From: Myxococcales bacterium
Lineage (GTDB): Bacteria; Myxococcota; Kuafuiibacteriia; Kuafuiibacteriales; Kuafuiibacteriaceae
Assembly: GCA_019634385.1 (NCBI GenBank)
Contig: JAHQVK010000069.1
Coordinates: 22,182-86,181, forward strand
Reading direction: 5' to 3'
Length of the DNA: 64,000 nt
Within the stretch, counting starts at the first letter, position 1, and every line of letters starts with the position of its first letter. Below, piece by piece: positions 10,348-54,593 of the stretch. The position numbers were made by a program, and so were the translations under genes. Under the pieces are notes generated by a model. It made no database searches and was not told the origin of the DNA. It saw nothing but the letters and a program-made list of their open reading frames with translations.

Positions 10348-10879
10348 TAAAGATCACGTTGGGCTATTTGACTATGAGGGGAGGGTGCCAGTTGCAACCT
10401 AAATACTCCCTGCGGTGAGATGCTCCGTCATGCGATTTCTGTCAATGGTGGTACAGGCAAAGCTCAAGGCGGCGACATATGTCATCGGTGATGCTCGCAT
10501 TGAGACTTATGATAAACTAAGTATATATCTACATTCTCCTCTATCTCTATGCATGTAGTTCAACGAAGTTTAGTTGGTGAGTCTAAGTTATTCCGAAGAT
10601 TTTCAACTGGTCGAGCGGTGAGGGAGAGTCGATCGAATCTTCAGAGCTTAAACTCAGTTTAGGCAATTCTGTCACAATGGTAGGGATAGATTATATGATG
10701 ATGAGGCTTGTCCTCAGGTCATGGCGAGGCTAGTCAGTAGGCTGATTTTGTGGGTACATATGAGAAAAGAGACAAACAGGGTTTGGGTGAGTGTATATAA
10801 GGAAACGAGATAGATGTGCTTGAAGATGGAGTGGTGTGTTCTATTGTTGTCGCGCGTTGATTCCAAGCGGAGAGCAAAC

Positions 10880-11063
10880 TAGGGCGTGTCTTTACACTAC
10901 GGACCGCGTTCTGACTTGTTTCCCGCGTATGTGAGGGTTCGGTGGTTTCGCCCCTCTTTCGGGCCTTTCGGCCGGGTACGTCCAGTACCCTCCCTCCGAG
11001 GCCGACTCTTCAACTCCGGCTACGGTGTCATCTCCGCAGCCGGAGTTTGAAGATGCGCCCTAA
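10880..11063 (+). repeat. Family B repeat, copy B1
   Basis: tagggcgtgtctttacactacggaccgcgttctgacttgtttcccgcg...ggagtttgaagatgcgcccta. About 185 bp with imperfect terminal inverted repeats and a long internal hairpin. Confidence 0.85.
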
Positions 11064-11085
11064 ATTGGGCGTATTTGAGCCGCTG

Positions 11086-11199
11086 TACAGCAAAGACCAC
11101 TTGAATTGATTCTGTAAGAATCAACAAGTGGTCGCGCAGCGGAGCATAACCCGGTGTGGAAGCAGGATCTTGGGTTGAACCCAAGTGATTTCCGCTGTA
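11086..11199 (+). repeat. Family A repeat, copy A2 (full length, reference copy)
   Basis: TACAGCAAAGACCACTTGAATTGATTCTGTAAGAATCAACAAGTGGTCGCGCAGCGGAGCATAACCCGGTGTGGAAGCAGGATCTTGGGTTGAACCCAAGTGATTTCCGCTGTA. It has three hairpins and terminal inverted TACAGC..GCTGTA. Confidence 0.9.
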
Positions 11200-11252: not shown

Positions 11253-12044
11253 CTAGCTACGGGATAGGAGCAGGGAAATTGCCTCCTTATGAACTATACC
11301 ATTAGACGCAACAAGTCTTGGTGTTTCAACGTGAATGGGGCTTCCGTCATAAGCAGTCAACCGGCCCCCTGCGGCGGCGACCAGAGCCATGCCGGCGGCA
11401 ATATCCCAAGGTTTCACGCCCCCTTCCCAGTAGAGATCGTAAGTACCATCAGCCACCATACATAGGTCTATGGATGCCGAACCGCAGCGCCGGAGACCGC
11501 GAATATTGAGGAGTAATATAGATGTCTCGTGGAGATTGTTATCTGGATTTGTTTTTCGGTCGTATGGAAAACCAGTTGCGCACAGCGCTTGATTGAGGGT
11601 TTTGGTAACTGAGGGTTGGCAGGCGACGCCATTTCGGTGTGCGCCGATTCCAGCGATACCTGTCCACGTGGTACCTAAAATCGGGGCGTGTACAACGCCG
11701 AGTAGAGGCGTTCGGTTGTGGCAAAGGCCAATGGATACCGAAAAAAACGGGTGCCCATGTGAGAAGTTTGTTGTGCCGTCTAGCGGGTCTATGTACCAAG
11801 TCAGGTCTTGGTCTCCTGACAGCTGGGGAAGTTCTTCACCGATAATATTATGGTGGGGGAAAAGGCTATGGAGCCGTTTCTGTACAAGTTGTTCGACTCT
11901 GAGATCATATTCGGTTACAAGATCAATGGCTCCCTTTAGCGTGATGTCGGGTCTTTTACGGTAGCCTTGGTCTAGTAGTTGACCGGCTTCGAGAGCAATC
12001 GCCTTTACGTGGGGTAGAGCTTTTTGGAGTTCGTCTTGGTTCAT
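11253..12044 (-). CDS. suhB: Inositol monophosphatase family protein
   Basis: 263-aa ORF with the IMPase motifs WYIDPLDGTTNF and WDIAAG. Confidence 0.85.
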   Translation of the reverse strand: MNQDELQKALPHVKAIALEAGQLLDQGYRKRPDITLKGAIDLVTEYDLRVEQLVQKRLHSLFPHHNIIGEELPQLSGDQDLTWYIDPLDGTTNFSHGHPFFSVSIGLCHNRTPLLGVVHAPILGTTWTGIAGIGAHRNGVACQPSVTKTLNQALCATGFPYDRKTNPDNNLHETSILLLNIRGLRRCGSASIDLCMVADGTYDLYWEGGVKPWDIAAGMALVAAAGGRLTAYDGSPIHVETPRLVASNGIVHKEAISLLLSRS

Positions 12045-12089: not shown

Positions 12090-12282
12090 CTGATGAAACT
12101 GGATTTGAAGCGGCTTCCGGCTATGGAGATGACGCCGTATCCCGCGTGTGTGAAGGGTCGTCCCCGGAGGGAGGGTACTGTATGTACCCGGCTGAGGGGC
12201 CCGAAACCGTGGCGAAACCACCGAGCACTCTCAAATGTGGGAAACAAGTCAGAAAACGGTCCGGAGTGTAAAGACACGCCCT
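12090..12282 (-). repeat. Family B repeat, copy B2 (left end divergent, boundary approximate)
   Basis: ...ggagatgacgccgtatcccgcgtgtgtgaagggtcgtccccggagggagggtact...gggaaacaagtcagaaaacggtccggagtgtaaagacacgccct. Confidence 0.8.
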
Positions 12283-12323
12283 CGCTTCCAATCCTTCGAC
12301 AGTCTGTAGTTTGGTAGTGAGAG

Positions 12324-12435
12324 TACATCAAAGACCCCTTGAATTGATTCTGTAAGAATCAACAAGAGGTCGCGCAGCGGGGCATAGCCCGGCGTAGAAG
12401 CAGGAACTTGGGTTCAGTCCACGGGATTCTGCTGG
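12324..12435 (+). repeat. Family A repeat, copy A3
   Basis: tacatcaaagaccccttgaattgattctgtaagaatcaacaagaggtcgcgcagcggggcatagcccggcgtagaagcaggaacttgggttcagtccacgggattctgctgg. The 3' hairpin is degraded. Confidence 0.85.
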
Positions 12436-12461
12436 ACTACCCGTGGTCGACCAGGTTTGAC

Positions 12462-12536: not shown

Positions 12537-15263
12537 CTAATTAACATTACACGAAGCGTATTTGCCTTTTGAGTAGCAAACTTCAGGAACGCCACTGAGA
12601 TCTACGTTCCTAAGGGCGAACCGACTGCTTGAGCAGTCAGAGCGGAACACAGCTTCCTTCACGTTGCTAATGCTCGAGTTTTCGATCGTCCAATTGACTG
12701 GATAGCATCTTCCACCGTTTTCCCTCAGGACCTTACCTGCGTTGGTGATGATCGCGTTTCTCACAACTACTGTTGATCGAGCATTGGACTGGAAGACTTT
12801 GTCTGCTGCGTCTCGGGCAGTGATGTTACTGATAGTTACGTTGGCAGAGGACTTGATCGTGAGGGCATCCTCACAGACATTGGGCCAGTGAATATTGGTG
12901 ATGGTGGCGTTGCCGTACACATGGATGCCGTCACCACGTGGCCCAACGATCACATTTTTCAGCGTTCCGCCGTTTACGCGGAAGACCGGATCCTGCCCTT
13001 CACCCTGAGTGCAATCCCCCCAAGTTGGGGTATAGGTCTTACAGCCGCCATCAAAGGTGCCATTGACCTGGATTGTGCTTGAAACTCGCACGTTACCTTG
13101 GGAGCTTGTACAGGACGAACCACGACCTGAAGGACTGGGACTTGGCTCTGGGTTCGGTTCGGGCGTAGAGTTGTTGAAGTCGCTGCAATCACTTGCAGTT
13201 CCAACACCTGGTCCCGTGACTTCGAGATAGTCGATGTTAGCGAGACCAGAGCCTTGGTTTGCTGTGAGGGTCACGCGCTTGGTGCCGCTACCAAGATTGA
13301 GCGTCACTGCTCCCGTGTTGTTCCAAGAGTCCCAGCCACCAGTCCCGGAGAAGTTTTGGGTTCTAACGTTGCTACCATTGATGCGGACATTACCCGAGCG
13401 ATTGTCGGAGGTACCATTGGCATACTGCCATCGGAAGGTATACGAGCCCGATTGACCGGAAATACTCCAACCAACACTGGCCCCATTCGTGTTGTCGGTA
13501 TTCGCGAAGCCATCGCCGGAAAACCCACCGTTGTTGTTATCGACTGAGCCGTTGACACCACAGAACCCTGGAGAGTTCTCCTGGATTCGGATGGTTGGGT
13601 TGGGGCTTGGTGCTGGAGCGGGCTCCGGTTCTGGAGCGGGCTCTGGATCTGGTTCCGGAGCGGGCTCTGGATCTGGGTTAGGACCCCCACAACTACTGGG
13701 CGTCACGACACCCGGTCCGGATACTTCGAGGTAGTCAATGTTTGCGAGGCCGGAACCTTGATTTGCTACCAGGCGCACCGTCTTGGTTCCCCCGCTGAGA
13801 TTGAGCGTAACTGAAGTTGTTGTCCACGACTCCCATCCCCCGGTCCCCGGGAAATCCTCAGTGGAAAAGTTGCTGCCATTGACTAGAACCTGCCCAGAGC
13901 GGTTTGCGGTGGACCCATTTGCGTACCGCCACCGGAGGGTGTACGCCCCTGAGGGACCAGTAATGCTCCAGGTCACGCCTTGGCCATTGGCGTTTTCAGT
14001 GTTGGCAAAGCCATTCCCAGTGAAATTGCCGTTGTTGTTATCTACCGAACCGTCAACACCACAGAAACCGGAGGCATTCTCTTGAATCCGAGTGGTTGGC
14101 CCGCCGGGGCTTGGATCCGGGTCTATTGGATCTGGTTCCGGAGCGGGCTCTGGATCTGGTTCCGGAGCGGGCTCTGGATCTGGTTCTGCGGGGTTGGAGC
14201 AGTTACCACTCGATCTGCGCATACCGGTATTTGCACCTGCGGTGCTGCGAACAATCGATGGGACACAACTAGCTTGGTCCACTCTATAGCTATAGGGCAC
14301 ATTCACACTGCCGGTCGACCGGACATTTGGACCAGCCGGACGTTGGCTGCTGCTCGATTGCCATTCAACGTTGGAGAAAATATTGCCGCTGACCTCCCAG
14401 GTTCCGTTAGTATCGGTATAGAAGGTTCCAAGCGGATTGCGAGAATCAACAAAGTAGTTACCTTGAACGAGGGCTCGACCGCCAGCGCGGACGTTGATAC
14501 CGGTTTCGTTGATGCCATCATAAAAATTGTTGAAAATATGCCCGGTCCCGTACCGAAAAAGAGGGGTTCGGGTGTTAATGTTTTCCCACCAGTTGTGGTG
14601 GTAAGTTATGTAGTTGTTTTGGTCGCTCTCGCTTGAACCTACCAAACCACCACGGCCAGAATTTCGGAAACGGTTATAAGATATAGTTACATACTGGGTG
14701 TTGTTCTTCATGTCGAGCAACCCGTCGTAACCTTCATTCTCTCCCCCAAAAGCCTCTAGGGTGCAGTGGTCAATCCAGACATTTCGAACATCCTTCTCCA
14801 TCCCGATGGCGTCTCCGCCATTTGAGGTGGTGCCTCCGGATTTCTTAACATCACGAACATGAACATTCTGAATAATGATATTCGAGGAGTCTCGGATATG
14901 AATACCAATCTCATCAAAAACGGCACGACCCGAGCCCCGGATGGTGACGTTACTAACTTCCTTAATCTCAATCACGTTATCAGCGGTGTTGCAGCTATCG
15001 CCACTGACTTTTGAAGTGTTAGATGGGGTAATAGTCCCCGACACCTCGATGATAACCGGGGAGCTGCTCGACGAGCGGTTGCACAGTGCCTGGTGAATCT
15101 GGGTACCAGTACTCGCACGGACAACGGGGCCACCAGCACCGCCATCGGTGCCACCGTAGCCGACGATTTGTGCGTTGGCTTCGCCTGTCATGAAAAGAGC
15201 AAGTGCTACACCGACTGTTGCTTTCAGTCCTACGTAGCCTGCCTTAATATATAAAAATCTCAC
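12537..15263 (-). CDS. Secreted multidomain pectate lyase: PL1 domain, two CBM6/35-like modules, PL3 domain
   Basis: 908-aa ORF with a signal peptide (ALALFMTGEANA). PL1 motifs are VWIDHCT, RSGRGGLVGSSESD and RYGTGHIFNNFY. Two about 130-aa repeats each end in GLANIDYLEV. The C-terminal PL3-type region reads FRVNGGTLKNVIVG..DGIHVYG..NVCEDALTIKS. Domains are joined by PEPAPEPDP linkers. GGAGGA lies upstream of the GTG start. Confidence 0.85.
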   Translation of the reverse strand: MRFLYIKAGYVGLKATVGVALALFMTGEANAQIVGYGGTDGGAGGPVVRASTGTQIHQALCNRSSSSSPVIIEVSGTITPSNTSKVSGDSCNTADNVIEIKEVSNVTIRGSGRAVFDEIGIHIRDSSNIIIQNVHVRDVKKSGGTTSNGGDAIGMEKDVRNVWIDHCTLEAFGGENEGYDGLLDMKNNTQYVTISYNRFRNSGRGGLVGSSESDQNNYITYHHNWWENINTRTPLFRYGTGHIFNNFYDGINETGINVRAGGRALVQGNYFVDSRNPLGTFYTDTNGTWEVSGNIFSNVEWQSSSSQRPAGPNVRSTGSVNVPYSYRVDQASCVPSIVRSTAGANTGMRRSSGNCSNPAEPDPEPAPEPDPEPAPEPDPIDPDPSPGGPTTRIQENASGFCGVDGSVDNNNGNFTGNGFANTENANGQGVTWSITGPSGAYTLRWRYANGSTANRSGQVLVNGSNFSTEDFPGTGGWESWTTTSVTLNLSGGTKTVRLVANQGSGLANIDYLEVSGPGVVTPSSCGGPNPDPEPAPEPDPEPAPEPEPAPAPSPNPTIRIQENSPGFCGVNGSVDNNNGGFSGDGFANTDNTNGASVGWSISGQSGSYTFRWQYANGTSDNRSGNVRINGSNVRTQNFSGTGGWDSWNNTGAVTLNLGSGTKRVTLTANQGSGLANIDYLEVTGPGVGTASDCSDFNNSTPEPNPEPSPSPSGRGSSCTSSQGNVRVSSTIQVNGTFDGGCKTYTPTWGDCTQGEGQDPVFRVNGGTLKNVIVGPRGDGIHVYGNATITNIHWPNVCEDALTIKSSANVTISNITARDAADKVFQSNARSTVVVRNAIITNAGKVLRENGGRCYPVNWTIENSSISNVKEAVFRSDCSSSRFALRNVDLSGVPEVCYSKGKYASCNVN
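13200..14192 (-). repeat. Internal tandem duplication (linker plus CBM unit, two copies) within the pectate lyase gene
   Basis: Unit 1 is about 13704-14192 and unit 2 about 13200-13685. The linker DNA (tggttccggagcgggctctggatctgg) is near-identical in both, and the CBM peptides are clearly paralogous (TRIQENASGFCGVDGSVDNNNG versus TIRIQENSPGFCGVNGSVDNNNG). Confidence 0.8.
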
Positions 15264-15928: not shown

Positions 15929-16043
15929 TAGAGCAGAAATCCCTTGGGTTGAACCCAAGTTCCCGCTTCTCCGCTGGGGCTATGCCCCGCTGCGCGACCC
16001 CTTGCTGATTCTAAGAGAATCAATTCAAGTGGTCTTTGCGGTA
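15929..16043 (-). repeat. Family A repeat, copy A4
   Basis: Reverse orientation: tagagcagaaatcccttgggttgaacccaagttcccgcttct...gcgcgaccccttgctgattctaagagaatcaattcaagtggtctttgcggta. Confidence 0.85.
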
Positions 16044-16191
16044 TTAGATGTTTGTATAACGAGGTGTTGATTGTTTGGGAGGGTTGGTATGCCCTTCGTT
16101 AAGATAATGTATACATAATTGATTCTTAGCACTCTACCCGTTGATGCAGAGGTGAGGGTTGGCTTAGCACATAAGCCGTCTGTTTCGTTAG

Positions 16192-16364
16192 CAGCCGGTT
16201 GATTTGGCCATGTGTGTAGCTGTCGAGCCCGGCTTTTCGTGAAACGCTCTGACGACGAGGCGAGCGTACCCGGCGGTACGTGACCGAGGAGAGACTTTTC
16301 GTGGTCAGGACGTTTCACGGAAAGACCGGCCGACAGATGCGTGCAGGGCTAGATCAACCGGCTG
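16192..16364 (+). mobile_element. Family C MITE-like element, copy C1, flanked by a 4-bp direct duplication TTAG
   Basis: cagccggttgatttggcc...gggctagatcaaccggctg. It has roughly 19-nt terminal inverted repeats, and the whole 173 bp folds as a long hairpin. The flanks read cgTTAG|cagcc...ggctg|TTAGgg. Confidence 0.85.
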
Positions 16365-16518
16365 TTAGGGCCATCATGCCCTCTCGGATGTATCGGTTGT
16401 ATTACTAATTGTAGTGGTCTTTACTGCAGAAGTTGGTTGGCTTGAATCCAAGGACCAGCGACTGCGCTTGCTATTGCTCTGCTGCATCAAGACCACTGGG
16501 CAGGAAACAGCAGGGATA

Positions 16519-16632
16519 TACAGCAGAAATCCCCTGGGTTGAACCCGAGTTCCTGCTTCTTTGCGGGGCAATGCCCCGTTGCGCGACCCCTTGTTGATTC
16601 TTGGAGAATCAATTCAAGTGGTCCTTGCTGTA
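16519..16632 (-). repeat. Family A repeat, copy A5
   Basis: Reverse orientation: tacagcagaaatcccctgggttgaacccgagttcctgcttct...gcgcgaccccttgttgattcttggagaatcaattcaagtggtccttgctgta. Confidence 0.9.
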
Positions 16633-16650: not shown

Positions 16651-16830
16651 ACTAGCAGGCCATCTGAAAAGTGAGTTAGGCGCTTCGCGGGTCCTTTTTC
16701 CGTGAACGTCCGGACCGGCTTCGCCTTTCATCGGTTGCATACGCCCGGTATGCGCCCTCTTCATCCGGAGCGTTCCCCGGAAAAGAACCTTCGCGGATCA
16801 CCCATCCCACTTCTCCGATGGCCAGCTAGT
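16651..16830 (+). repeat. Family D repeat, copy D1
   Basis: actagcaggccatctgaaaagtgagttaggcgcttcgcgggtc...cgcggatcacccatcccacttctccgatggccagctagt. It has terminal inverted repeats, and its interior is related to the core of family C. Confidence 0.8.
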
Positions 16831-30595: not shown

Positions 30596-30803
30596 AAATA
30601 GCTAATGACTGAAGGTGGCACGACCTTTCCGCCAGCCTTATGGCAGAAAACGGCGCAAAAGCGGGAGCGCCAGGCGATCACAGGCAGGCGTGGCCGGTTT
30701 CGGGCGCATTGCCCGCGCTACAGGACGAGGCCGTTCCTTCCGGACCTGGCGAGTAGCCCAGACCCGCGAAGCGCCTAACTCACTTTTCCGATGGCCTGCT
30801 AGT
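30596..30803 (-). repeat. Family D repeat, copy D2 (one terminus nearly identical to D1 (one mismatch); interior different; far end degenerate)
   Basis: The reverse complement of 30761-30803 is actagcaggccatcggaaaagtgagttaggcgcttcgcgggtc, matching the D1 5' end with one mismatch. The remaining sequence is not alignable to D1 by eye. Confidence 0.65.
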
Positions 30804-30948
30804 GTCCTTTAGTCCGCAAAGGCTACAGAAACAGGCCCCGTTAGACGTGAATCCGTGGTTAGCTGATATTTTTTGGGCTCGGCGATACGCTCGCTGCCCG
30901 AGAGGCTCCCTTCGAGGCGGACCGAAGATCACCTGATATTGAGGCGAA

Positions 30949-31005
30949 TACAGCAGAAATCCCTTGGGTAGAACCCAAATTCCTGCTCTCCGCGCGGCTA
31001 TGCCT
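30949..31005 (-). repeat. Family A repeat, copy A6 (truncated; abuts the stop codon of the RlmN/Cfr paralog)
   Basis: tacagcagaaatcccttgggtagaacccaaattcctgctctccgcgcggctatgcc, after which similarity is lost at the gene's TAG (31009-31011). Confidence 0.7.
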
Positions 31006-34893: not shown

Positions 34894-35116
34894 GCCCCGT
34901 AAGTGGCATAGATAGAGGTTCTATGTCATTGTCAACCAACAGCTCCTGTAAGCATGCACTTGGAGTTCTTGGGTTAAAGGCGTGTCTTTAATTCGTCCTG
35001 GCTGAACTTGAATGTTCAGTGATCGAGGGGAGTCCTCATGTAACCGATGGCCTCTCAGTCAGGGGGCTATGACTAGCCGTTCGAGTTCGAATGTTTAGTT
35101 AAAACAGAATTTTAAC

Positions 35117-35229
35117 TAAAGCATAAATCCCTTAGGTTGAACCCAAGTTTCTGCTTCGCAGCGGGGCTATGCCCGGGTGCGCGACCCCTTGTTGATTCTT
35201 ATAGAATCAATTCAAGTGGTGTTTGTTGT
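35117..35229 (-). repeat. Family A repeat, copy A7
   Basis: taaagcataaatcccttaggttgaacccaagtttctgcttcgcagcggggctatgcccgggtgcgcgaccccttgttgattcttatagaatcaattcaagtggtgtttgttgt. Confidence 0.85.
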
Positions 35230-35430: not shown

Positions 35431-35611
35431 GAGTGCCTATTTTGATTGCAGAGAACGTCTCAGCTAGGAAGCCTGCCGAGGAGCCGAGCGCGGGATCTAA
35501 CCGTGCGGCGTTGGTATTCAAACCTCTCTCTGGTAGCCGCAGCTTGGTTGGGGACCTTAGCCATAGCTAGACGGTTTCGAGGGCATAGCTAACTGACCGA
35601 CAGATCCCTAA

Positions 35612-35723
35612 TCCAGCAAAGGCCCCTTGTTGATTCTGTAAGAAACACCAAGGGGTCGCGCCGCGGGGCATGGCGTGGCGTAGAAGCAGGAACTTGGGTT
35701 CAACCCAAGTGATTTCTGCTGTG
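35612..35723 (+). repeat. Family A repeat, copy A8
   Basis: tccagcaaaggccccttgttgattctgtaagaaacaccaaggggtcgcgccgcggggcatggcgtggcgtagaagcaggaacttgggttcaacccaagtgatttctgctgtg. Confidence 0.85.
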
Positions 35724-37657: not shown

Positions 37658-38806
37658 ATGATGAGCGAAGAATCCGGCGTCAGCGGACCCCTGTGGTTGC
37701 TGGCCGAATTGACCTACCGGTGCCCCCTGCAATGTCCGTATTGCTCAAATCCTAGTAACTACGAGGAGTCGCTGAGCCACGAGCTAACCACCGAAGAGTG
37801 GATAAGTGCGCTGCGGCAGGCGCGAGCTATGGGAGCGGTCCAACTAGGCTTATCGGGAGGTGAGCCCTGTCTACGTACCGATTTGGAGGAAATTGTTGCT
37901 GAAGCCCATAAGTTAGGTTTTTATACCAATCTCATTACTTCCGCCTATAATTTATCTTCCGAGCGAATTAGTAATCTCAAAGAGGCGGGTTTAGACCATA
38001 TCCAAGTTAGTATTCAGGGGGCGGATAAGCGTACTAATGACCTGTTGGCGGGTACTGCATGCTTCGATCGGAAAATTGCTGCTCTCTATCATATAAAAGA
38101 GCAAGGTTACCCACTTGTATTTAACTTTGTTGTTCATCGATTTAATATTCATCAAGTTTGGGACTTACTTACCTTGGCGAATATGGTTGAGGCAGATTTT
38201 GTAGAAGTTGCTAACTGTCAGTACCACGGCTTTGCTTTTCTTAATAAGGAAGCACTACTTCCGACCCCCTTGCAGATACGACAGGCGGAAGAAGAGGTGG
38301 CTCGCTTCCGCTCCCAACTAAGCCGAAAAATGGAGATCTTCTTTGTGGTACCGGACTACTTCGAAGAGCACATAAGTCCGTGCGTCAATGGCTGGGGGAC
38401 CACGATGGTCAATGTATCACCAAACGGTCGTGTGTTGCCTTGTCATGGTGCGGGTGAGATGAAGCATCTTCCCATACCGAACATTCGGGAACAGAGCCTC
38501 CAGGATATCTGGTATCACTCCACATTGTTCAATCAATATCGAGGCACTTCATGGATGAAGGAGCCATGTGCTTCTTGCCCGGAGAAAGAAAAGGACTTTG
38601 GGGGGTGCCGGTGCCAAGCGCTGGCATGGACACAGGATGCTGCAAATACAGATCCGTGTTGCCCTAAGTCTCCTCATCACGGCTTGATCGAGAAGCTGGT
38701 AGACCCAGCCAGTCAACGTCAACCATTGGTACAGTTACGGAACACCCGGGGCACGAAGATGGAGTTTGGTGAGCTAGTGTTTAGAGGCGCAGCAAAGGCC
38801 ACTTGA
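37658..38806 (+). CDS. pqqE: PQQ biosynthesis radical-SAM/SPASM enzyme PqqE
   Basis: LLAELTYRCPLQCPYCSNP (CxxxCxxC) plus a C-terminal Cys-rich SPASM region (CASCPEKEKDFGGCRCQA). The last codons and the TGA stop lie inside a family-A repeat. Confidence 0.9.
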   Translation: MMSEESGVSGPLWLLAELTYRCPLQCPYCSNPSNYEESLSHELTTEEWISALRQARAMGAVQLGLSGGEPCLRTDLEEIVAEAHKLGFYTNLITSAYNLSSERISNLKEAGLDHIQVSIQGADKRTNDLLAGTACFDRKIAALYHIKEQGYPLVFNFVVHRFNIHQVWDLLTLANMVEADFVEVANCQYHGFAFLNKEALLPTPLQIRQAEEEVARFRSQLSRKMEIFFVVPDYFEEHISPCVNGWGTTMVNVSPNGRVLPCHGAGEMKHLPIPNIREQSLQDIWYHSTLFNQYRGTSWMKEPCASCPEKEKDFGGCRCQALAWTQDAANTDPCCPKSPHHGLIEKLVDPASQRQPLVQLRNTRGTKMEFGELVFRGAAKAT

Positions 38807-38890
38807 ATTGATTCTGTAAGAATCAACAAGTGGCCCATAGCCCGGCGTAGAAGCAGGAACTTCGGTTCAACCCAAGTGATTTCTGCTGTA
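38788..38890 (+). repeat. Family A repeat, copy A10 (fills the pqqE-pqqC junction; contains the pqqE stop)
   Basis: cgcagcaaaggccacttgaattgattctgtaagaatcaacaagtggcccatagcccggcgtagaagcaggaacttcggttcaacccaagtgatttctgctgta. The TGA of pqqE is the 'cacTTGAatt' TGA at 38804-38806. There is a small internal deletion relative to the consensus. Confidence 0.9.
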
Positions 38891-39625: not shown

Positions 39626-39724
39626 GTTGAATGATGATACAACCATCATCACCATGCACAGCTTGCCGGAGACCTCGCTCGACATCTTCTTTTGAGCCGC
39701 TGGATGATAGAGATCTTCAGCAGA

Positions 39725-39839
39725 TACAGCAAAGACCCCTTGAATTGCTTCTGTAAGAATTACCAAGTGGTCGCGCAGGGGGCATAGCCCCCAACGGAGA
39801 AGCAGGAACTTGGGTTCAACCCAAGTGATTTCTGCTATA
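39725..39839 (+). repeat. Family A repeat, copy A11
   Basis: tacagcaaagaccccttgaattgcttctgtaagaattaccaagtggtcgcgcagggggcatagcccccaacggagaagcaggaacttgggttcaacccaagtgatttctgctata. Lies between the convergent pqqC and cupin genes. Confidence 0.9.
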
Positions 39840-44873: not shown

Positions 44874-45107
44874 TACAGCAAAGACCCCTTGCTGATTCTT
44901 ACAGAGTCCATTCAACAGCCTGTTGATTTAGCCCTGTGTATAGCTATCGAGCCAGGCTTTTCGTGAAACGTTCTGACGACGAGGCGAGCGTACCTGGCGG
45001 TACGCGACCGAGGAGAGACTTTTTGTGGTCAGGATGTTTCACGGAAAGACCGGCCGATAGATGCCTGCAGGGCTAGATCAACAGGCTGTCAAGTGGTCTT
45101 TGCTGTA
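44874..45107. repeat. Family A-derived mini-palindrome (A12), split by insertion of family C copy C2
   Basis: The left part, 44874-44915, is tacagcaaagaccccttgctgattcttacagagtccattcaa. The right part, 45089-45107, is tcaagtggtctttgctgta. Joined with one tcaa removed, they restore the A terminal hairpin ..attcaagtggtctttgctgta. Confidence 0.75.
44916..45088 (+). mobile_element. Family C MITE-like element, copy C2, flanked by a 4-bp direct duplication TCAA, inserted in an A-type palindrome
   Basis: cagcctgttgatttagccc...gggctagatcaacaggctg, closely similar to C1 over its full length. Flanks are atTCAA|cagcc...ggctg|TCAAgtgg. It contains the TAG stop of the GNAT gene (45073-45075). Confidence 0.85.
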
Positions 45108-54478: not shown

Positions 54479-54593
54479 GTGCAGTAAAGACCCCTTGAAT
54501 GGATTCTGTAAGAATCAACAAGTGGTCCGCAGTTGGGGCATAGCCCGGCGTAGAGGCAGGAACTTGGGTTCAATCCAAGTGATTTCTGCTGTA
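54479..54593 (+). repeat. Family A repeat, copy A13
   Basis: gtgcagtaaagaccccttgaatggattctgtaagaatcaacaagtggtccgcagttggggcatagcccggcgtagaggcaggaacttgggttcaatccaagtgatttctgctgta. Lies between two convergent genes. Confidence 0.9.

Follow-up and report, generated by a model that had tools for sequence, protein, structure and literature searches.

Does the 173-bp segment at positions 16192-16364, bounded on each side by TTAG, represent a transposable element, and if so, of what kind and moved by which transposase? The first-pass annotation had described it as a member of a repeat family (family C) with clean terminal inverted repeats and a 4-bp target-site duplication, had placed a closely similar second copy with a different flanking tetranucleotide at 44916-45088, and had taken the pair as the footprint of transposase-mediated insertion. 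We followed these claims through the window, by which we mean the whole 64-kb stretch of DNA analysed, and through metagenome and protein-database sequences.

Direct reading of the sequence confirmed the exact coordinates of the first copy and its TTAG flanks, and the second copy was found at the expected place between two TCAA tetranucleotides. The window contains two family C copies of 173 bp each, which are co-linear and 92% identical over their full length (14 differences). The junctions of copy 1 (16192-16364, + strand) read cgTTAG, CAGCCGGTTGATTTGGCC...GGGCTAGATCAACCGGCTG, TTAGgg, with the duplicated TTAG at 16188-16191 and, again by direct reading, at 16365-16368. The junctions of copy 2 (44916-45088, + strand) read atTCAA, CAGCCTGTTGATTTAGCC...GGGCTAGATCAACAGGCTG, TCAAgt, and TCAA was read directly at 44912-44915 and 45089-45092. 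The terminal inverted repeats of copy 1 lie at 16192-16209 (+, CAGCCGGTTGATTTGGCC), the first 12 nt of which are perfectly complementary to the right end, and at 16347-16364 (-, reverse complement CAGCCGGTTGATCTAGCC); those of copy 2 lie at 44916-44933 (+, CAGCCTGTTGATTTAGCC) and 45071-45088 (-, reverse complement CAGCCTGTTGATCTAGCC). The word "clean" applies to the outer 12 bp, which match at 12/12 positions; the match falls to 16/18 over 18 bp, and beyond the outer 12 bp the inverted repeat runs on imperfectly almost to the centre of the element. The 18-mer end had four matches in the window at up to three mismatches (0.07 expected), namely the four ends of the two copies, and the 12-mer end was confined to the same four places. 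A sensitive blastn search detected no further family C fragments in the window. Both copies are intergenic and lack credible coding capacity, since each of the six frames contains stops or yields spurious ORFs only, and the stop-free runs reach only 40-52 aa. Copy 1 adjoins an ExbD gene, and a terminator-like stem-loop with a T-run is located at 16160-16187 (+), just left of the element and outside it.

The reality of the duplication could be examined at copy 2, which sits inside, and interrupts, another short repeat (family A). By alignment to seven intact family-A copies in the window, the left part of the interrupted repeat corresponds to 44874-44911 and the right part to 45093-45107; the arms of inverted repeat I8 (44874-44891 and 45090-45107) span this host repeat. 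The sequence of the seven intact copies is ..AATCAATTCAAGTGG.., and TCAA occurs once in it, at the point where copy 2 is inserted: an intact repeat reads ...GAATCAATTCAAGTGGTCTTTGCTG, containing one TCAA, and the interrupted one reads ...TCAA, element, TCAAGTGG... The same single TCAA was present in 19 contigs of intact family-A copies from run X1 ("plant metagenome"), the only public run holding this genome stretch, in which unique DNA has a depth of 24-29x. Because the intact paralogues have one TCAA, the 4 bp at copy 2 were duplicated on insertion. The target-site duplications are therefore genuine, and for copy 2 a paralogous empty site, present both in the window and in X1, provides the verification. 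The joined empty site of copy 1 had no match in the window, and no orthologous empty site from another strain was seen among the X1 contigs, where copy 2 is fixed at full depth.

Additional copies were recovered by a protein-database search with the translated 52-aa stop-free frame of the element. This search yielded 34 further family C copies, each on a separate contig of one "Myxococcales bacterium" MAG (KTR25_ locus tags). The matches, annotated as "hypothetical proteins" of 45-90 aa, are spurious ORFs that begin within the element and leave it through its left end, so that the flank is encoded in them. The codons after ..NQPA are G+N1N2 followed by N3N4+X, and the left-flank 4-mer was read from these. 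In the 30 readable copies, Ala or Val stood first, or Thr in two of them, followed by Ser, Arg, Lys, or Asn; on the + strand of the element, the left flank was thus Y-T-n-R in 30/30, and assignment by fit gave CTAG in 19 copies, TTAG in 5, TTAA in 5, and CTAA in 1. With random flanks, the probability of a 30/30 fit would be at most (1/8)^30. Two frameshifted copies, with flank codons Leu-Arg and Leu-Gly, are also consistent with YTAR, and protein P0005 spans a tandem dimer with one TTAG common to both copies. In X1, the legible junction flanks were CTAG, TTAG, CTAA, and TTAA, mostly CTAG or TTAG. These results indicate that the target choice of family C is non-random: it inserts at YTAR, with CTAG the commonest site, followed by TTAG/CTAA and TTAA. 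The flanking 4-mers are duplicated, as had been claimed, but they are not arbitrary; the TTAG of copy 1 fits YTAR, and the TCAA of copy 2 is atypical, deviating from it at one position. A 4-bp target duplication of the sequence 5'-(C/T)TA(A/G)-3' is also produced by IS5 (PMC5009759), so duplication length and YTAR target are common to IS5 and family C. It also follows that at least 34 "hypothetical proteins" of a public MAG (P0001-P0034, KTR25_) are translation artefacts of this repeat.

The copy number of family C was assessed in X1, where 735-992 contig pieces mapped on the element. The contigs diverged 3-4 nt outside it, and the consensus agreement of the loose ends was only 0.4-0.6; this disagreement among the flanks indicates many different insertion sites. 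Several contigs contained head-to-tail joints of family C separated by only TTAG or CTAG. The summed k-mer depth on the element was 1.0-1.26e5, compared with 24-29 for unique DNA, which corresponds to approximately 4,000 genome-equivalents; on copy 2, which is nearer than copy 1 to the majority family C sequence in this run, it reached 106,665 against 28 in the flanks. Junction contigs were present at about 25-33x, like the host genome, implying that at least many of the copies belong to this organism. Family C is thus very abundant in this metagenomic genome of a marine member of the Myxococcales. The figure of about 4,000 genome-equivalents from k-mer depth is at odds with the two copies per 64 kb in the window, and either long contigs are biased to repeat-poor DNA or a part of the signal comes from elsewhere. 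If the copy number holds for one genome, few bacteria would be known to carry a heavier load of MITEs. The k-mers of the element also occurred in marine, macroalgae, and seagrass metagenomes (X2-X5), with other flanks and again with CTAG.

Other repeats surround the two copies. Family A, a repeat of about 110 nt with ends CAGCAGAAATC.. and ..GGTCTTTGCTG, is present in at least 11 window copies (785-899, 11085-11199, 12323-12437, 15930-16042, 16517-16631, 30947-30987, 35115-35229, 35609-35723, 38790-38890, 39724-39839, and 54479-54593). TA was found on both sides of the two copies that were read, and family A looks like an IS630/mariner-type MITE, separate from family C, which uses it as an insertion site. 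A 589-bp stretch (window 15974-16563) that includes copy 1 is absent from X1, where both neighbouring genes are at 24-28x: the depth was zero over unique DNA at 16053-16133 and 16377-16457, and one contig joined 15974 to 16583, linking two family-A copies. The gap is best read as a difference between near-identical strains, seemingly a deletion or an insertion, that arose by recombination between two direct family-A repeats, and the absence of copy 1 from X1 is part of this difference rather than a precise excision. At 16652-16830 (element about 16656-16826) lies a MITE-like sequence designated family D, which reads CTAG, CAGGCCATCTGAAAAG...CCGATGGCCAG, CTAG and reaches a summed depth of about 24,000 in X1. 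Another locus, with a related end at 30779-30798 (-), shares only the first ~40 nt with it. In some X1 contigs, a family C copy stops at 16297 and gives way to CTAGCAGGCCAT, the family D end. Family B consists of two inverted 144-nt copies (10869-11012 and 12151-12294; ends like GGGCGTGTCTTTAC) that are 83% complementary and bracket an inositol monophosphatase gene (11253-12044) together with two family-A copies, an arrangement resembling a composite transposon. The window also encodes a secreted-looking protein of 908 aa (12537-15263, -) with pectate lyase domains PF00544 and PF03211, two CBM6/CBM35 modules, and PEPEP-rich linkers, which fits a plant- or algae-associated organism.

Complete insertion sequences (IS) related to family C were found elsewhere. 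They are about 1.47 kb long, with termini CAGCCCGTTGA.., perfect 4-bp YTAR duplications, and one DDE transposase of 438-450 aa. Two JGI metagenome loci (L127 and L130) carry such a complete IS; that in L130 is 1,477 bp long, reads CTAA, CAGCCCGTTGAAAAAGGCC ... CCGGCTAAATCAACGGGCTG, CTAA, and contains one 450-aa ORF with the Pfam domains DUF772, DDE_Tnp_1, and DDE_Tnp_1_6, all passing. The best NCBIfam model for this protein was IS1182 (188.1 bits, cut-off 270), followed by IS5_4 (94.6 bits, cut-off 140); as both scores are below the cut-offs, the transposase was filed only as IS5/IS1182-like. At E < 1e-20, the database contains at least 8,000 relatives of this protein, several of which JGI calls "IS5 family transposase". 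Three further loci were fetched by protein identity and are hence independent of the DNA end pattern. Two of these contain IS of 1,466 bp (L135) and 1,467 bp (L136), each flanked by TTAG/TTAG and with the same termini, and the third (L137) has the same architecture, with CTGCCCGTTGAT next to CTAG. The IS in L135 and L136 have an inner end, CAGCCCGTTGATTTAG, that is identical to the left end of copy 2 at 16/17 bases, and the left end of copy 1, CAGCCGGTTGATTTGGCC, is comparable with the related inner end CAGCCCGTTGATTTAGCC. Plasmid relatives at 49-50% amino-acid identity (Sphingobium pCHQ1 and Methylocystis heyeri) still end in CAGSSCGKTGA, and the Methylocystis relative has a 4-bp duplication, TTTG/TTTG.

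The first-pass annotation had suggested looking for an autonomous IS with these termini elsewhere in the genome. Such elements were found in other organisms, down to the matching inner end, but not in the window or in X1 at host depth. A Pfam scan of 20 window ORFs showed no transposase domains, no long element with family C ends was found in the 64 kb, and tblastn with the L130 transposase gave no match in the window or in the other loci from L118 to L134, apart from an end fragment in L127. No close DNA relative of L130 was present among the X1 contigs at the host depth of ~26x, and only weak pieces at 2-5x were detected. An autonomous partner in the same genome is accordingly no more than a possibility, and the related IS would, judged from sequence, connect with family C at clade level only.

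A sister family extended the comparison. The 34-nt degenerate end pattern gave no matches in a metagenome scan, and the 18-nt degenerate end pattern gave single chance matches only in 596 Gb of genome contigs, its 15 specified bases being too few. A second metagenome scan, with YTAR plus the 18-nt end, returned 17 loci, 14 of which came from the WGS metagenomes PDWJ01 and PDWI01 and carried a sister MITE family, C'. Its members are 158-166 bp long and form a full-length hairpin. The first ~20 nt of the end (CAGCCTGTTGATCTAGCCCT) are the same as in family C, whereas the interior is unrelated and the G+C content of the host is higher. Three of the YTAR duplications of C' were perfect (CTAA/CTAA, CTAG/CTAG, and TTAG/TTAG) and two matched at 3/4 positions. 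Self-nesting was frequent in C': in PDWJ01 (L119, L121, L123, and L129), one copy is inserted exactly at a CTAG in the terminal repeat of another (..GGTGAT, CTAG, CAGCC..). In L123, L126, and L133, C' copies are themselves interrupted, next to CTAA, by a further repeat (GAGCTTCCCCACAC..).

We conclude, with a probability of roughly 85%, that family C is a MITE, a 173-bp non-coding derivative of an insertion sequence with an IS5/IS1182-like DDE transposase. The interpretation of two different perfect 4-bp repeats as a sign of transposase-mediated insertion is supported by the empty site, the additional copies (34 in the MAG, with diverse flanks in X1), and the related IS, and with it the first-pass view of a non-autonomous element mobilised by a transposase with 4-bp duplications. 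The suggestion of recent mobility is unproven, since the two window copies differ by 8%. A transposase of the IS5/IS1182-like clade, supplied in trans, would bind the ~18-bp ends of family C, excise the element, and insert it at YTAR by cuts staggered by 4 nt; repair of the gaps would then yield the 4-bp duplication. Because insertion recreates YTAR to the left and right of the element and a CTAG also lies within its end, later copies tend to settle beside or inside older ones, a process that would build nests of repeats in intergenic DNA. The two MITE ends are both similar to one and the same IS end (GTTGATTTAG / GTTGATCTAG) and not to the other one, GTTGAAAAAGG, and the arms pair nearly to the middle of the element, suggesting that family C may have arisen as a fold-back of one IS end.

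One competing explanation concerns the hairpin. Each window copy folds into a single hairpin along its whole length, for copy 1 with an RNA minimum free energy of -107.5 kcal/mol (z = -11.5 relative to shuffles), and the fold differs between the strands: the minimum free energy of copy 1 is -107.5 kcal/mol on the + strand and -85.3 kcal/mol on the - strand, the + strand is ~22 kcal/mol more stable in both window copies, and the family C hairpin has 8-10 G.U pairs on the + strand versus 2 on the - strand. The hairpins of C' show the same G.U strand asymmetry in the same orientation (L120, L124, L131, L132, and L134). Two stem pairs differ on both sides between copy 1 and copy 2, namely 6/168 (G-C to T-A) and 31/143 (G-C to A-T), and the latter is polymorphic in X1 at matching frequencies (16222 G>A, 86%; 16334 C>T, 82%). 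End position 6 is alike at both ends in each element, being G/G and T/T in the window copies and C/C in the IS of L130, L135, and L136. These paired changes fit any one of three processes: co-evolution of the ends with the transposase, arm-to-arm correction within the hairpin, or selection on the RNA or single-strand fold.

The stable full-length fold, the strand difference with its one-sided G.U pairs, the stem pairs changed on both sides, and the intergenic position of both copies would all be expected of a structural or regulatory palindrome, whether REP/BIME-like or of the IS200/IS605 type moved by Y1/RAYT, or of a structured small-RNA family. We nevertheless consider this explanation very unlikely. 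Elements moved by Y1/RAYT have neither target duplications nor terminal inverted repeats, and family C has both, the duplication being proven by the empty site. No Rfam family matched in the window at gathering thresholds, and the promoter scan found no promoter-like site in or beside the element. Furthermore, the ends of family C match those of a DDE-type IS, and the family behaves as a transposon in its copy number and in its nested or tandem insertions at YTAR. The MITE reading is compatible with a more far-reaching proposal, to which the G.U pairs on one strand, the compensatory changes in the arms, and the same asymmetry in the sister family point: that family C has undergone a burst to thousands of copies, which would make up several percent of the genome, in a marine member of the Myxococcales associated with seagrass or macroalgae, and that its hairpin is perhaps maintained at the RNA or single-strand level. 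The hairpin may then have a role, for example as an RNase III substrate or a transcript-end structure, instead of being a passive by-product. We regard this joint proposal as speculative and rather improbable.

A second alternative accepts transposition and questions the length of the duplication. According to this explanation, family C would be an IS630/Tc1-mariner-type MITE that duplicates only TA in an NTAN target, and the outer base on each side (G..C) would belong to the element. Most flanks are CTAG, the classic IS630 target, and this palindrome cannot separate the two models; the ends of family C start with CAG, and the neighbouring family A looks like a TA-duplicating element. The non-palindromic flanks decide between them. 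Identical 4-mers of this kind were found in the window (TTAG/TTAG and TCAA/TCAA), in C' (CTAA/CTAA and TTAG/TTAG), and in the complete IS (CTAA/CTAA, TTAG/TTAG twice, and TTTG/TTTG), so that under the TA model each case would require the terminal bases of the element to have varied by chance in step with the opposite flank. No TA is present at copy 2 (TCAA) or at the Methylocystis element (TTTG), and the related transposase is of the DUF772/DDE_Tnp_1 type, not the IS630 type. Given the paired identical non-palindromic flanks and the sites that lack TA, we rejected the TA model, which we hold to be extremely improbable. A mere coincidence of two 4-bp matches, with spread by recombination or segmental duplication, has next to no probability. 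In its favour are the presence of just two window copies and the absence of the 589-bp stretch with copy 1 from the X1 strain, apparently by family-A recombination. Against it, chance would produce two independent 4/4 matches with a probability of about 1.5e-5, the flanks beyond the 4 bp differ among copies (loose-end agreement as given above), and the empty site together with 30/30 informative copies in the one YTAR motif in effect refutes it.

MITEs are well known in bacteria, and family C changes no concept. It is chiefly of use for annotation and for defining the ends and target rule of an IS clade, and possibly as a case of a marine myxobacterium with an unusually large expansion of a MITE. 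A full-text literature search retrieved no paper describing MITEs in Myxococcales, and the present analysis documents them there. The intergenic regions of this genome are full of repeats, and short-read assemblies break there; family C accounts for both. In addition, an end sequence and a target rule (CAGCCNGTTGA, 4-bp YTAR) are now available for a very large and poorly classified clade of IS5/IS1182-like transposases.

Among known systems, IS5 of E. coli is closest in several respects. The autonomous elements related to family C are 1.47 kb long and have one ORF with DUF772 and DDE_Tnp_1, the domain pair of IS5 InsH. Members of the IS5 group usually have ends with GG and a transposase of about 330 aa, whereas the ends of the related IS start with CAGCC and their transposase has 438-450 aa and an additional DDE_Tnp_1_6 signal; family C itself, unlike IS5, is non-coding. 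IS1182 is the family of the best NCBIfam model for the related transposase, and the combination of DUF772 with DDE_Tnp_1_6 and the protein length fit this family, although the score is below the cut-off. The IS701 family, which also generates a 4-bp duplication, was rejected, because its terminal consensus, ---YACT-Y--YR (PMC2266710), does not fit the ends of family C, which read CAGCCGGTTGAT. Mechanistically, family C is of the same kind as the Correia elements of Neisseria, ERIC/IRU, and RUP, although it has no sequence similarity to them and matched no Rfam model. These are non-coding MITEs of 100-200 bp with terminal inverted repeats and target duplications, present in hundreds of intergenic copies and giving hairpin-forming transcripts; they duplicate TA and are related to other IS families. 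The Tourist/PIF-Harbinger MITEs of plants are eukaryotic and have a 3-bp duplication (TWA), and they resemble family C by description, being target-specific, fold-back, non-autonomous derivatives of IS5-related DDE transposons.
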